Positions 1,812 to 9,737 of a DNA stretch of 64,000 nt are shown here, in pieces. The notes under the pieces were generated by a model, which ran no database searches, was not told where the DNA came from, and saw only the letters and a program-made list of their open reading frames with translations. Origin of the DNA: a virus; the IMG/VR virus record IMGVR_UViG_3300031703_000599, positions 34,609-98,608 of that record. One strand, given 5' to 3'. The translations under genes and the position numbers were made by a program. Numbering within the stretch: the stretch's first letter is position 1; every line of letters starts with the position of its first letter.

Positions 1812-2585
1812 TTATTTAGTGCTATTTATAATATTTGGTTCTACTTCAAAATATTTGTTCACTTCAAATTCATCGTTTAAATCATCTGGCGCATAACCTC
1901 TTGGATTACACAACACTCGTGTTTGATCAACAACATAATCGCTACTGTTATGCATGTGACCATGAACCCAGAATGATGGCTTAAATGTCATCATAAACGC
2001 GGTTCTATCGCTGTAATATGACGCATTCAATAGTTGCCCTTTGAAACATTCATGACTTGAATTCTCATGTGGCGCATGGTGAGTAATAACTACATCACCT
2101 TCTTTCACATTGTTATTCATATATGCCATTGTTCTCATATGCTCGTATGCGGCATCAGTAGGTCTAAATTTACGAAAATCTGGACCCATACGGATATACT
2201 TGTGGTCACTCATCTTCTGGCTAGCATCCCACATTGCTAATGGTTGATTACCAGATGATTGATAATCAGTCCACAATGTAGCGCCGTGAAACACAACACC
2301 TTTGATCTTGCGCCACTCGTTCTGTAACACATGGACATTCTCATACACATCTTCTTTAATATGTTTTAATGTGTTTTCAATATGCCCACGATAGAATTCA
2401 TGGTTGCCTTGAATCAATATAACATCTTCATACCGCAATGCCATTTCGTTGACCCAATCAATTCGGTGCTTCACGTTAATGTCGCCAGCAAGAATCAATA
2501 CATCTGCTTCAACAGTTGGTTCTTCAGTCATACGACCAAACTCCAAGTGTAGGTCAGACATGTATAGACACTTTACTTTGCTCAT
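1812..2585 (-). CDS. calcineurin-like metallophosphoesterase
   Basis: SDLHLE, AGDI, GNHEFY, THHAP, HGHMH, NPRGY motifs. Confidence 0.9.
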   Translation of the reverse strand: MSKVKCLYMSDLHLEFGRMTEEPTVEADVLILAGDINVKHRIDWVNEMALRYEDVILIQGNHEFYRGHIENTLKHIKEDVYENVHVLQNEWRKIKGVVFHGATLWTDYQSSGNQPLAMWDASQKMSDHKYIRMGPDFRKFRPTDAAYEHMRTMAYMNNNVKEGDVVITHHAPHENSSHECFKGQLLNASYYSDRTAFMMTFKPSFWVHGHMHNSSDYVVDQTRVLCNPRGYAPDDLNDEFEVNKYFEVEPNIINSTK

Positions 2586-3517: not shown

Positions 3518-3733
3518 TTACTTGTTGTACTGCAATTTAGCAAATTGCAGCAAGGCCGTTAGCTCATCTATTTTTTCTTGTTGTTCATTAACGTCAAATT
3601 TTAGTTCTTCAATTAATGCAAAGTGATCATCAAATTTGACCCATTCGCCATTACGGCGAGATTCCAAGCTCGCGCCGCTTCCGCTTTTACTGCGATATAC
3701 AACCATGTCCCATCGTTCTATGTCATTGCTCAT
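3518..3733 (-). CDS. hypothetical protein
   Basis: ORF track. Confidence 0.55.
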   Translation of the reverse strand: MSNDIERWDMVVYRSKSGSGASLESRRNGEWVKFDDHFALIEELKFDVNEQQEKIDELTALLQFAKLQYNK

Positions 3734-3957
3734 AATATATTTTCTCGTCTTAATACCTTAGATGCGTTCTCCATGAATACCGGAGTTAGCGTTGTGCCAT
3801 CGAAGTTAATGCAATCATTTAATAAATCATTTAATGCATCACGGAATATAACGACTTCATCTTGTAAGTCATAAACTCTTTGGTCAGTCCAATCTGCACC
3901 GCATCCGCATTCGCATTCCCCATACGCAGCACAAGTACAATCCATTCCATTACTCAT
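3730..3957 (-). CDS. hypothetical Cys-rich protein
   Basis: Likely start MSNGMDCTCAAYGECECGC within ORF 3730..4047. Confidence 0.5.
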   Translation of the reverse strand: MSNGMDCTCAAYGECECGCGADWTDQRVYDLQDEVVIFRDALNDLLNDCINFDGTTLTPVFMENASKVLRRENIL

Positions 3958-4670: not shown

Positions 4671-5288
4671 ATGAAGTTTTTAAAATCAATCAAATCAAAA
4701 TTTGTGCTGTGGCTAATGTCAACTACATTGTACAAGTATCTATTATTTCACGTTATACCTTATATAAGATTCACAACATATTACACATCCATGCGAGGCA
4801 GAACGTATCACAAATTATACAAGGCAGTTAAGCCAGGACATATCCTATTAACAAACGATAGTAAAAAACTAACAACTCTTTTAATAGGCGGCGAGTTTTC
4901 ACACGCTGCATATGTAGTATCAAAGGATGGAGATTGGGAAGTATCAGAAATGACCCACAACAATTACACTAAAAGTACTGTTGCAGATTTGTGCTTTGAG
5001 GCTGATCGCGTTGTTGTGCTTGAATGTACTACATTTGATGCAGCATACACTAAGAAGACTATTGCTAAGTGCAAGTCGTTTGAAGGTGTTGCATATGATG
5101 TTCAATTTGAATTGGGATTGGAAGCATTGTCATGTGCAGAAATGGTATACGAAGCAGATTTTGAAAGGCGCTTAGATGTAAACCTAGAAGACGTTATAGG
5201 AATAGGCCAATTGTATATTTCACCAACTGGCCTATATAATTCCAAGAATGTCAAAGTGATATTTGACACAGCTAATGTTAGCAACTAA
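4671..5288 (+). CDS. permuted papain-like NlpC/P60 enzyme (YiiX/YebB-like)
   Basis: PGHILLT, FSHAAYV (His), YDVQF, SCAEMVYEA (Cys) in permuted order; N-terminal hydrophobic segment. Confidence 0.75.
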   Translation: MKFLKSIKSKFVLWLMSTTLYKYLLFHVIPYIRFTTYYTSMRGRTYHKLYKAVKPGHILLTNDSKKLTTLLIGGEFSHAAYVVSKDGDWEVSEMTHNNYTKSTVADLCFEADRVVVLECTTFDAAYTKKTIAKCKSFEGVAYDVQFELGLEALSCAEMVYEADFERRLDVNLEDVIGIGQLYISPTGLYNSKNVKVIFDTANVSN

Positions 5289-5299
5289 CATAGTGAATT

Positions 5300-5370
5300 T
5301 ATCTCGATAGGAGTTGAACCTATGTACACAAGCCATACCCTGTGATCTAGCACTATATTGCTACGAGATA
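5300..5370 (-). ncRNA. tRNA-like structured RNA without canonical anticodon loop
   Basis: TATCTCG/CGAGATA stem, TAGCA/TGCTA arm, CACA/TGTG arm, T-arm ATAGG-TTCAACT-CCTAT; no encoded CCA. Confidence 0.55.
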
Positions 5371-5374
5371 AAAC

Positions 5375-5449
5375 TGGAGCGGGTGGACGGAATCGAACCG
5401 ACATCTAAAGGTTGGAAACCTCCAGTAATAACCATTATACTACACCCGC
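5375..5449 (-). tRNA. tRNA-Gly(TCC)
   Basis: GCGGGTG acceptor, anticodon loop TT-TCC-AA, GGTTCGATTCC T-arm, CCA end. Confidence 0.92.
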
Positions 5450-5457
5450 AAAACTAA

Positions 5458-5558
5458 TTTGACCCTTAACAGTTGCTCCATCTGAGAAGATGTTTTATCG
5501 GTTCTACCAGCAACTTAATATTAAGTGAGTTGTCTCGGTTACTCTCACAAGGGTCAAA
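5458..5558 (-). ncRNA. structured ncRNA candidate (~100 nt, multibranch)
   Basis: Closing stem TTTGACCCTT/AAGGGTCAAA; internal GTGAG/CTCAC, AGTTGCT/AGCAACT, CATCT/AGATG. Confidence 0.55.
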
Positions 5559-5562
5559 ACTT

Positions 5563-5635
5563 TGGTGTTCGATGAAGATTTAATTCTCCGTTTCTGACTT
5601 ATCAGTGTCAGCGTTCTCTCTTGAACTATTCGAAC
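5563..5635 (-). tRNA. atypical or pseudo tRNA-Ile(GAT) with 8-nt anticodon loop
   Basis: GTTCGA/TCGAAC acceptor plus ACCA, D-arm GTTC/GAAC, CTGAC-ACTGATAA-GTCAG; degenerate T-loop. Confidence 0.6.
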
Positions 5636-5643
5636 AAAACTAA

Positions 5644-5748
5644 TTATCTCGGTAGGATTCTAACCTACATGCATGAAAACATCATCAGCGTAGCCCGGTC
5701 AATGGGGTGGCTGGATTTCACTGCTTTAACCTTTAAGCAACGAGATAA
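5644..5748 (-). ncRNA. tRNA-like RNA with greatly extended anticodon arm
   Basis: TATCTCG/CGAGATA acceptor, D-arm GCTT-AAAGGTTA-AAGC, T-arm GTAGG-TTAGAAT-CCTAC, ~50-nt paired arm in place of the anticodon. Confidence 0.6.
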
Positions 5749-5750
5749 AC

Positions 5751-5836
5751 TGGCGGAAAACTAAGGAATCGAACCTTAACCCTTTCGAGTCCACGCGGTT
5801 AGCAACCGGCCCTAGATCCAATCTAGATAATCTTCC
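5751..5836 (-). tRNA. tRNA-Ser(GCT)
   Basis: Anticodon loop TT-GCT-AA, long variable arm, GGTTCGATTCC, GCCA end. Confidence 0.88.
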
Positions 5837-5841
5837 AAACG

Positions 5842-6044
5842 TGGTCCCGCACCGCCCTTTCAAAGCGACTTAACTATGACAGGTTTACTAGGTTTATACT
5901 AACGATCAACTGGTTAGGAATACGCTTCATATCATTGGGCGATTCTGATCTGTGTTCATTGAGCGACCAAGCACAACTACTAACTTCACTATCTACCCAT
6001 CCCTAGCATTTACCAGAGAGATCATACTCAAGTGGTCATGCGAG
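5842..6044 (-). ncRNA. ~200-nt structured RNA with tRNA-like acceptor stem and 3' ACCA
   Basis: CTCGCAT/GTGCGGG-ACCA terminal stem; CGCTTT-GAAA-GGGCG hairpin; nested GATC, CTGGT/ACCAG, TAGGGAT/ATTCCTA pairings. Confidence 0.55.
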
Positions 6045-6051
6045 TTAAAAA

Positions 6052-6127
6052 TGGCTCCTGAAGTTGGGCTCGAACCAACGACAAATAGATTAACAGTCTA
6101 CTACTCTACCAACTGAGCTATTCAGGA
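6052..6127 (-). tRNA. tRNA-Asn(GTT)
   Basis: TCCTGAA acceptor, AGCTCAGTTGGTAGAG D-arm, CT-GTT-AA loop, GGTTCGAGCCC, GCCA. Confidence 0.93.
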
Positions 6128-6139
6128 ATTAAACTTCAC

Positions 6140-6283
6140 TTTCAACTATGCTGGGTAGTATAGTCTACTTACAAACGTGACTAACCATTTGCATTGGTAG
6201 ACTAGGGACTATGTAATGTCCTAAAGCATTCAACGAGTGTCACTCGCTTACTGGCTTAAGGAATCGTCCCAGCATATGTGAAA
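6140..6283 (-). ncRNA. structured ncRNA candidate (~145 nt, multibranch)
   Basis: TATGCTGGG/CCCAGCATA closing stem; TAGTCTAC/GTAGACTA, GGAC/GTCC, CGAGT/ACTCG internal hairpins. Confidence 0.55.
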
Positions 6284-6305
6284 ATAAAGTTTTACGATAA
6301 GGGTG

Positions 6306-6494
6306 TTAAGCCTTAAAGTTGTACTCTGTATAAAGGATATCTAAGATATCGTCTATAGTATCTCTATCTGTTGCTAAAATGTTTTGAGGAGTTGCGTTGA
6401 TAACTTCCTTAATAGCAGCAATTTGTGTATAACGATCTGCGTCTTGTGATGTAGTTTGCGAAACAGTTTTAGCGAATTGCGATAGAGTATACAT
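6306..6494 (-). CDS. hypothetical protein
   Basis: ORF track; follows promoter 6530-6558. Confidence 0.55.
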   Translation of the reverse strand: MYTLSQFAKTVSQTTSQDADRYTQIAAIKEVINATPQNILATDRDTIDDILDILYTEYNFKA

Positions 6495-8718: not shown

Positions 8719-9042
8719 TTATAGTTTAAATTCTAATCCAAAAACAACGCCAATATTATTACGTTCCAGTGCTGGTGCAACGAAGTAATTCTTGTATGTT
8801 ATTCGTGTGTATGGGATAACGTCTGCAACTGTATAGCCGCCTGCTAATGCAAGTTCAAACCCCCAGTCGCCGTATTCGTGCCGATAGCCAGTGTATGGGC
8901 TTATACGTTCTTCACTGTTGTAGTATAGGCCAGTGATGTAATTATCCTGTGTGTAGCGAATGTGTGGATGAAGTTCATTGTATTCGCTTGCAAGTCCAAG
9001 GTGTAGACTTACTCCTAATGTTAGTACAAGTGCTCCGTTCAA
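8719..9042 (-). CDS. small beta-strand-rich (possibly outer-membrane) protein
   Basis: Alternating aromatic/Gly strands, ends VVFGLEFKL. Confidence 0.5.
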   Translation of the reverse strand: MNGALVLTLGVSLHLGLASEYNELHPHIRYTQDNYITGLYYNSEERISPYTGYRHEYGDWGFELALAGGYTVADVIPYTRITYKNYFVAPALERNNIGVVFGLEFKL

Positions 9043-9737
9043 CTGTTAGGCGTGCCAGTCTTGTTATCTTGCAGCCATTTAATAGCAAATCTATTAGTAG
9101 GTGGACTAGTTATAAATGCACGTATTAATTTTTCCACGTTATCAAAGTTTTGCTTGCGAGCAGGGTCTTCTAAGCCGCCGCTGTTGTCCACGATATGGAA
9201 GTTGCTGGCGCCAAATACTTGTTGAAATTTCATGATATTGCTCTGCACCGCGTTCCACATTTTAGAAACCATTTCAGTTGGGAGCTTTCTAGGACGTTGT
9301 AAGTTACGTGCTTGTGCAACTTCAAGGTCAGTATTAACAAATAACATCATTGTACTGTAGCCTAGTTTTCTTAGATCATCAGATGCTTTTTTTACTTTGT
9401 CTGTATTCTTGCCTGTGCCATCAATTATAATACCTAGTCGGCCACTAAGGTATGCGTTCTCACGATGAGATGTAAGTTTTTTTGCACGGTCTCTAATTTC
9501 TTGGCCTTCTGGACTTGCAACAGCATCAGGGTCGCCTAAATCCAATTCTTGTTTATGCGCCATGTATTCATATATGTCATCACTGTTAATGGCTTTCAAT
9601 CCATACCCAGATAATAGTCCTTTTGATACATAGCTTTTGCCGCTGCCTGGGCCGCCAGCTAGGAAGACTGCTTTAAATATGTGCTTATCATGTGGTCCTT
9701 CTGCTAAATTCTGTTCTGTGATTTGATGTATTTTCAT
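9039..9737 (-). CDS. P-loop kinase (zeta-toxin/AAA_33-like)
   Basis: GGPGSGKS Walker A, INSDD, IIDGTG, ARNxxRxR. Confidence 0.8.
   Translation of the reverse strand: MKIHQITEQNLAEGPHDKHIFKAVFLAGGPGSGKSYVSKGLLSGYGLKAINSDDIYEYMAHKQELDLGDPDAVASPEGQEIRDRAKKLTSHRENAYLSGRLGIIIDGTGKNTDKVKKASDDLRKLGYSTMMLFVNTDLEVAQARNLQRPRKLPTEMVSKMWNAVQSNIMKFQQVFGASNFHIVDNSGGLEDPARKQNFDNVEKLIRAFITSPPTNRFAIKWLQDNKTGTPNS

Follow-up and report, generated by a model that had tools for sequence, protein, structure and literature searches.

Phages T4 and T5 both carry, among their transfer RNA (tRNA) genes, small RNAs to which no function has been assigned for decades. In T4, a single transcript of ~1.75 kb is the precursor of eight tRNAs and of the species I and II RNAs (PMC2330249). 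The T4 record annotates rnaC (species 1, 139 nt) and rnaD (species 2, 119 nt) at the end of the tRNA cluster, and no role is known for RNAC or RNAD (PMC3014915). In T5 (record NC_005859), seven RNAs (RNAI, RNAIII, RNAIV, RNA1, RNA2, RNA2H, and RNA3; 73-172 nt) are interspersed among the tRNA genes and annotated as 'stable' or 'tRNA-like stable', 'with unknown functions'. Phage or metagenomic clusters in which canonical tRNAs have neighbors with non-standard cloverleaves have also been described (Mukai et al. 2017, PMC5389517); these irregular tRNAs include (8/4) tRNA-Ser and can form 'polycistrons of irregular tRNAs'. Here we analyze an array of tRNAs and other structured RNAs in a 64,000-nt stretch of viral DNA (hereafter the window), which corresponds to bases 34609-98608 of the 98.6-kb record IMGVR_UViG_3300031703_000599. 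We interpret this array, with moderate confidence, as a polycistronic tRNA operon of a large uncultivated phage, made up of nine separate RNA genes in which accessory RNAs join the tRNAs as they do in T4 and T5.

The nine elements tile positions 5299-6292 on the minus strand, back to back, as a preliminary description of this locus had proposed and as direct reading of the strand confirmed. Read 5' to 3' on that strand, they are E6, tRNA-Asn, E5, tRNA-Ser, E4, E3 (a tRNA-Ile), E2, tRNA-Gly, and E1. The linkers between them are 3-10 nt long and U-rich (UUUUUAA, CGUUU, GUU, UUAGUUUU, AAGUUUU, AUUAGUUUU, and GUU), and the linker following E6 is AAU when the extended helix of that element is counted. 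The GUUU-type linker that had been claimed to be shared along the array is real and precedes seven of the nine elements, while the base at position -1 is U in eight of the nine. A 3' CCA is encoded on tRNA-Asn, E5, tRNA-Ser, E3, and tRNA-Gly, i.e., on all four decoding tRNAs and on E5, and it is absent from E2, E6, and both tRNA-shaped elements that we predict not to decode (E1 and E4). The region had been described as free of open reading frames (ORFs), and this holds: the only ORFs in it are 45-54 aa long, begin with TTG or GTG, and overlap the tRNAs, and none is credible. No additional copies of the array elements were found elsewhere in the 98.6-kb record.

The make-up of the array differs from the preliminary split into three canonical tRNAs and six non-canonical RNAs. 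We instead distinguish two canonical tRNAs (Gly and Asn), two irregular tRNAs (Ser and Ile), two tRNA-shaped elements predicted to be non-decoding (E1 and E4), and three RNAs that are not tRNAs (E2, E5, and E6). When a tRNA caller was run (ARAGORN, default settings), only tRNA-Gly(UCC) at 5375-5449 and tRNA-Asn(GUU) at 6052-6127 were recovered and Ser was missed; the same two alone have a standard anticodon arm (7-nt loop, U33, and 5-bp stem). Scores on the Rfam tRNA model (RF00005; gathering cut-off 29 bits) were 67.2 bits for tRNA-Asn, 62 bits for tRNA-Gly, 43.6 bits for E4 (5644-5747), 32.9 bits for E3 (5566-5635), and 28.7 bits, just below the cut-off, for E1 (5299-5370). By this model, three of the six supposedly non-canonical elements are therefore tRNA-derived; the match at 5644-5747 appeared when less sequence was searched, and hence with laxer filters. 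E2, E5, and E6 gave no match to RF00005 even at an E-value of 10.

The likeness to T4 lies in rnaC and rnaD being non-coding, on the same strand as the tRNAs and within the tRNA cluster, as E1-E6 are here. When folded, T4 rnaC has a canonical T arm beside the closing helix and a large internal insertion, and E4 and E5 are alike in this respect. The two systems differ in proportion, as T4 has two such RNAs to eight tRNAs whereas here there are five to four tRNAs, and in that E5 carries an encoded CCA. In T5, the 5' and 3' ends of the stable RNAs pair with each other, and RNAI and RNA3 end in CCA, so that the present array follows the same grammar; the difference is that the annotation describes the T5 RNAs as observed RNA species, whereas those described here are predicted from sequence. 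A blastn search (word size 7) of the array elements against the tRNA regions of T4 and T5 returned tRNA parts only and no homology for E1-E6, and the resemblance is therefore one of kind and not of family. The preliminary suggestion of novel RNA classes stands insofar as E2, E5, and E6 match no Rfam family, but their kind has long been annotated in T4 and T5.

The three non-tRNA elements were scanned against Rfam 15 as small regions with lax filters, and the best matches were chance-level models of small nucleolar RNAs (snoRNAs) and microRNAs, at 11-18 bits against cut-offs of 40-70. E2 (5458-5558, minus strand) is predicted to be a three-way-junction RNA of ~100 nt with no tRNA features and no CCA (folding z-score -3.5). 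E5 (5842-6044, minus strand; from direct reading) is a 203-nt RNA that consists of a 7-bp acceptor-type helix, a 4-nt joint, and a 13-bp arm with a branched distal domain, followed on the 3' side by a 4-bp hairpin with a 7-nt loop that is stacked on the acceptor, and then by the discriminator base and CCA. E6 (6131-6292, minus strand) is a leader RNA of ~162 nt with no CCA, in which a closing helix of 14 bp, a 2x2 internal loop, and a further 9 bp surround a three-way junction; it ends 3 nt before tRNA-Asn. Its limits had first been placed at 6140-6283, which is too short. The minimum free energy of E6 predicted by RNAfold is -65.5 kcal/mol (z-score -8.6), and none of 200 shuffles of the full-helix extent (6131-6292) was as stable.

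A helix joining the ends of each non-tRNA element had been claimed, and E2, E5, and E6 are all closed in this way. We compared the best helix joining the ends of the three gaps between tRNA-like genes with 2000 dinucleotide-preserving shuffles. For E6, one shuffle had an equal or better helix and none an equal or better duplex energy; for E2, whose closing helix is 10-11 bp, the corresponding counts were 3 and 8. The closing helix of E5 (7 bp, two of them G-U) was equaled or bettered in 331 shuffles and is on its own not significant, with an equal or better duplex energy in 14; it runs directly into ACCA and has the stacked hairpin ahead of it. The closing helices of E2 and E6 are thus far beyond shuffled expectation, and that of E5 is marginal.

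Homologues of these RNAs came to light through a 20-nt pattern from the core of E2, the only pattern whose scan of IMG/VR was successful. It matched two contigs, L134 (IMGVR_UViG_3300031656_000482) and L135, which are 100% identical over their overlap and are therefore counted as one sequence. The L134 array is larger, with 15 tRNAs by both ARAGORN and Rfam, and its linkers are likewise of the AGUUUU type. The E2 homologue (L134 2222-2318) is 97% identical and lies between an irregular tRNA-like RNA and tRNA-Asp, where E2 has Ile (E3) and Gly as neighbors. The E5 homologue (L134 2680-2890; 78% identical) lies between tRNA-Ala and tRNA-Met, in place of Asn and Ser, and the E4 homologue (L134 3139-3227; 76% identical) between tRNA-Ile(GAU) and tRNA-Tyr, in place of Ser and Ile (E3). 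The L134 counterparts of E2 and E5 also match no Rfam family. Both the order of the elements and their tRNA neighbors differ between the two arrays, and the recurrence of E2, E4, E5, and the Ile tRNA in another order between other tRNAs points to independent, selected RNA genes as opposed to decayed spacers.

The two phages are otherwise very distant. Protein similarity between them amounts to 22-28% identity only, in a multi-copy family of 440-532 aa and one further ORF. RNA identities of 76-97% amid almost unrelated genomes point to strong selection or horizontal movement, and in either case to discrete genes. As to the multi-copy family, at least eight paralogues of a gene family of ~350-440 aa lie about 6-31 kb upstream of window base 1, and these match three tandem minus-strand paralogues of L134 (440-532 aa) at 21-26% identity. 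In the first 4500 bases of L134, two ORFs fall within the tRNA array, one ferredoxin-like (about 1562-1813) and the other IscA/HesB-like (starting near 3764). The same stretch has a near-consensus promoter (TTGACT-17-TATAAT) at about 1914-1942, an unassigned spacer of ~85 nt at 2507-2590, and more irregular tRNA-like RNAs, located at about 2144-2216 and about 3680-3745.

The preliminary description had raised the question of covariation among homologs; homologues do exist in the second phage, and they keep the helices. For E5, the acceptor and the stacked hairpin are invariant, both copies end in CCA, and the discriminator varies (A or G). The long arm shows two compatible one-sided changes, and one G-G mismatch here is a U-A pair in L134. 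Over the E5 consensus fold, two distal pairs are changed on both sides and still paired, five changes are compatible and one-sided, and three cells are broken. Differing columns make up 13 of 112 paired but 42 of 98 unpaired positions (Fisher p about 3e-7, for two sequences and a fold predicted from both). The comparison is consistent with the E5 fold, short of proof. In the E4 family (E4, its L134 homologue, and E1), four pairs are changed on both sides; in the L134 homologue of E4 the acceptor is unaltered, the distal hairpin is shorter, and the anticodon stem shows a compensatory change from A-U to G-C. E2 differs from its homologue by three substitutions, two of them at unpaired positions and the third in the closing helix, where U-A becomes U-G; so little change suggests strong constraint on the E2 sequence. 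The CCA state is kept for each type of element in L134, being present on E5 and absent from E2 and E4.

E4 (5644-5747, minus strand; E-value 1e-8 on the Rfam tRNA model) has the body of a tRNA, with an extended anticodon arm and no CCA. Its acceptor, U8, D arm with GG, and T arm are normal, and the Rfam alignment shows a 37-nt insertion in the anticodon loop; in place of the 7-nt loop there are ~39 nt, predicted to fold as a second hairpin that prolongs the arm (folding z-score -2.5). E1 (5299-5370, minus strand) also has no CCA and folds as a cloverleaf in RNAfold (z-score -2.6). It shares with E4 the 7-bp acceptor (UAUCUCG/CGAGAUA) base for base, the discriminator A, and the T arm, of which the first stem pair is A-U in E1 and G-C in E4; the T loop of E1 is canonical and its anticodon arm aberrant, with a 6-bp stem and a 6-nt loop. 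On the basis of these alignments and predicted folds, we take E1 and E4 to be paralogous tRNA bodies with a lengthened anticodon arm that are predicted to be unable to decode. The UGAUGA motif of E4 was also considered as part of a kink-turn or box C/D structure, and this was rejected, given that the opposite strand does not have the needed GA (by eye) and that the Rfam snoRNA matches are at chance level. An IMG/VR scan with the T arm plus acceptor of E1 and E4 gave no match, and a genome scan with their shared 3' motif gave 12 matches with no matching tRNA among them.

The four remaining elements are the decoding tRNAs, all on the minus strand. tRNA-Gly(UCC) and tRNA-Asn(GUU) are canonical, and the latter is 86% identical to the tRNA-Asn of a related virus (G001). 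tRNA-Ser(GCU), at 5751-5836, had been taken for canonical and is an irregular tRNA of type II. On the tRNA-Sec model it reaches 30.6 bits, short of the cut-off of 47, and ARAGORN calls it only with relaxed settings. Its D stem is 5-6 bp long with a loop of 3-5 nt, its anticodon stem is weak, with mismatches or a bulge, a variable arm is present, and G73 is followed by an encoded CCA. Taken alone, it can be drawn as 9/3, 8/4, or 7/5, and both relaxed ARAGORN and a two-sequence consensus with tRNA-Ser(UGA) of L134 give 7/5; that consensus keeps the 7-bp acceptor and 5-bp T stem, with one compensatory T-stem pair. E3 (5563-5635) is an irregular tRNA-Ile(GAU) that folds as a cloverleaf in RNAfold (z-score -4.0), with an anticodon loop of 8 nt (an extra A ahead of CUGAUAA) and a T loop of 6 nt (AUUAAA). 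Alignment with tRNA-Ile(GAU) of L134, a default ARAGORN call, shows four compensatory pairs in all, among them two acceptor pairs and one pair of the T stem, and the anticodon loop of the L134 tRNA is abnormal too, with C at position 33. Both Ser(GCU) and Ile(GAU) are thus irregular but probably decoding. The commonest Gly, Asn, Ser, and Ile codons of the phage are GGA, AAY, AGY, and AUY, and the four anticodons of the array match these most-used codons.

Three further comparisons concern individual elements. The Ser tRNA resembles the allo-tRNA-Ser described previously (PMC5389517) in its long D stem, small loop, long variable arm, and G73, and differs from it in that an 8/4 or 9/3 split is unsupported here; the 7/5 consensus with its L134 counterpart speaks against an (8/4) allo-tRNA, and E2, E5, and E6 are not tRNAs at all. 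E5 is reminiscent of transfer-messenger RNA (tmRNA) in its acceptor helix, stacked hairpin, and CCA, with one long helix replacing the D and anticodon arms and leading to the distal domain. A tmRNA was nevertheless rejected, as E5 has C3-G70 and not G3-U70, no canonical T loop, stops throughout all three frames, and no match to an Rfam tmRNA model; a 'permuted tmRNA' called by ARAGORN was an artefact spanning three tRNAs, and default ARAGORN found no tmRNA in the window. Finally, there are phage tRNAs that evade host anticodon nucleases by means of altered anticodon loops (PMC10264068), and T5 tRNAs neutralise PARIS or retron effectors (PMC11464382, PMC11555353). The Ile(GAU) loop departs from the standard in both phages, here by an additional A 5' of C32 and in L134 by C33. 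Changes of this type have been proposed to block nuclease recognition, and the likeness is by analogy only.

Under the operon interpretation, the whole array would be transcribed as one precursor, and RNase P would cut on the 5' side of every acceptor-type helix, at sites that nearly always have U at -1. Bacterial RNase P prefers U at -1 and a stack of the acceptor/T type. The U-rich linkers would then be trimmed by RNase E, RNase Z, or exonucleases, and the ~25-bp helix of E6 could be an RNase III site or a protective structure at the 5' end. The products would be the tRNAs together with stable accessory RNAs, like those of the tRNA regions of T4 and T5. The single precursor cut by tRNA-processing enzymes that was proposed in the preliminary description fits the anatomy in outline (one strand, acceptor-type helices, U at -1 in eight of nine, CCA on five elements, and the T4 parallel), and the cleavage is what we infer from it. 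As for function, our guess is that the accessory RNAs may act in trans by mimicking the upper half of a tRNA, and so engage host processing or modification enzymes or tRNA-targeting defence nucleases. In E1, E4, and E5 the part of a tRNA by which enzymes recognise it is retained and the codon-reading part is gone, so these RNAs might compete for host tRNA-binding proteins. A decoy or anti-defence role of this sort, which the preliminary description had also raised, is speculative.

Several points weigh against reading the stretch as an operon of nine RNA genes. For E5, the interior does not exceed shuffled sequence in stability (z-score -0.3), the contrast between paired and unpaired columns is in part circular, as the two sequences compared are those from which the fold was predicted, and the covariation was not significant in a shuffle control (118/500). 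Covariation is in any case anecdotal, given that only one independent homologous sequence is available (L134 and L135 being the same there), and the 97% identity of E2 could reflect recent horizontal transfer instead of constraint. Homologues of E1 and E6 outside this genome were not found. A convincing promoter or terminator was looked for around the array and none was found, and co-transcription, the cleavage sites, and the stability of the RNAs are all features that we infer.

Further copies of the array were sought in several collections. Against 50,697 phage records, blastn searches with the whole array, with E2, E5, and E6, and with the E5 homologue of L134 returned tRNA-Asn or tRNA-Gly parts or nothing; in 35 whole records of related viruses, the array matched at tRNAs only. 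Covariance models of E6, E2, and E5, run on 35-43 records, recovered the training sequence alone, and the E6 model was empty in the 35 related records. The neighboring C92-peptidase gene has protein relatives in ENA, NCBI, and Logan at 95% and 74% identity; synteny followed through it (as a single protein and as a 23-sequence profile) gave 23 loci, and through the gene of a zeta/polynucleotide kinase-like kinase 14 loci, with the array in none of them. IMG/VR pattern scans with the tRNA-Gly D arm and with the E6 hairpin gave no match, the scan with the Ser D arm gave 47, all by chance within coding sequence, and a metagenome scan with the 3' end of E5 gave 18, all by chance in high-GC contigs.

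Different readings of the odd elements can be weighed against these data. The non-tRNA elements, above all E2 and E6, might be cis-acting processing modules, i.e., folding insulators or entry sites for RNase III or RNase P that are degraded after tRNA maturation. We consider this doubtful, although the ~25-bp closing helix of E6 abuts tRNA-Asn, the related virus G001 has a different element (~112 nt, ~23-bp helix, z-score -7.7) at the same place 5' of its tRNA-Asn, and neither E2 nor E6 has a CCA or tRNA features. A spacer hairpin requires structure and not sequence, so the 97% identity of E2 between different neighbors, far above the conservation of E4 and E5, counts against such a role, while the CCA of E5, conserved in both phages, points to a mature and stable 3' end. 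Alternatively, a formerly larger tRNA array could be decaying, with the odd elements as its remaining tRNA pseudogenes and random spacer. E1, E3, and E4 are clearly tRNA-derived, with E1 just under the Rfam cut-off, no homologues of E1 or E6 were found, and none of the 35 related virus records searched carries the array, all of which such decay would accommodate. Yet the acceptor helices of E1 and E4 are perfect and identical while their interiors differ, the closing helices are far beyond chance, and E2, E4, and E5 are conserved, with compensatory and compatible helix changes, in a phage whose proteins are ~25% identical; decay is improbable in our view.

E4, and perhaps E1, could also be an intron-containing tRNA-Ile gene from which an insertion of ~30 nt is spliced out. 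ARAGORN in intron mode does read E4 as tRNA-Ile(gat) with a 30-nt intron, and the cloverleaf that remains is canonical. The insertion site, 32/33, is however not a known splice position, no Rfam intron family was matched, and the known introns of bacterial tRNAs belong to group I and measure about 200 nt or more. Moreover, the shorter insertion of the L134 homologue is still a hairpin that continues the arm, resembling a structural extension, E4 has no encoded CCA, unlike every decoding tRNA in both arrays, and a separate tRNA-Ile(GAU) adjoins E4 in both phages; we therefore regard splicing as highly improbable. At the other end of the range, E5 and E2 might represent two new families of trans-acting phage RNAs in tRNA arrays, with E1 and E4 as non-decoding tRNA decoys, a more far-reaching proposal that we think unlikely as it stands. 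If it were so, E5 could have a tmRNA-like end that mimics a tRNA, is CCA-matured, and is possibly charged or bound like a tRNA, and E2 could bind a specific host or phage partner, e.g., to sequester or inhibit an enzyme of tRNA-directed defence or processing.

The source record has a CheckV completeness of about 28% and a G+C content of about 38%, and from its completeness the virus is probably a phage of several hundred kb. Nearly all long ORFs of the window lie on the minus strand. The array is flanked by a convergent gene of the C92 amidase family (4671-5288, plus strand) and by a run of small minus-strand ORFs that ends at 6306. Sigma-70-like hexamers (TTAACA and TATTTT, 17 nt apart) occur at 6281-6309 on the minus strand; they are weak (9/12 matches), overlap the 5' strand of the E6 helix, and are doubtful as a promoter, and the number of such sites in the array region (8) is not above the shuffled expectation (4.6 +/- 2.3). 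Directly 3' of E1 (5294-5240, minus strand) there is no intrinsic terminator, only a 7-bp hairpin (ATGTTAG/CTAACAT) with no U tract, and a longer inverted repeat lies within the 3' end of the convergent amidase gene. Less than 4 kb from the array are genes for a P-loop kinase of the Zeta-toxin/AAA_33 type, with a weak match to a polynucleotide-kinase PHROG (9039-9737, minus strand), and for a calcineurin-like metallophosphoesterase (1812-2585, minus strand). A connection of these two enzymes with RNA end repair is conceivable.

Other tRNA regions in related viruses offered several side observations. The element of G001 mentioned above lies directly 5' of tRNA-Asn and is similar to E6 in place and shape, with no sequence similarity; a long-stem element in this position is absent in two other viruses (G021 and G032) and was rejected as a general feature. 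G001 also has a large tRNA array (L032; G001 98800-103200, minus strand) that is interrupted by CxxC/HxxH-rich ORFs resembling homing endonucleases, beside duplicated 5' tRNA fragments. A tRNA-like gene of ~100 nt with an Asn-type loop (CUGUUUA), an encoded CCA, and a very long variable arm is present at L009 19268-19367 (minus strand) and also in L006, L008, and L034 (G001, G002, and G006). ARAGORN labels it tRNA-Asp(atc), the Rfam tRNA model gives it 47 bits, and it lies directly downstream of a gene that by eye resembles, putatively, a class II aminoacyl-tRNA synthetase or AsnA.

As a single case with thin comparative support, this array exemplifies once more a pattern that recurs and is poorly understood. 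To the class exemplified by the T4 and T5 RNAs it adds three uncatalogued RNAs, namely E2, E5, and the tRNA mimic of E1 and E4, which are common to two very distant phages. Their recurrence suggests that such RNAs are mobile, selected modules rather than debris. Because phage tRNAs are known to counter tRNA-cleaving defences (PMC10264068, PMC11464382, PMC11555353), a decoy role can be put to the test, and non-decoding RNAs with the shape of a tRNA would be natural candidates for decoys or inhibitors of such defences.

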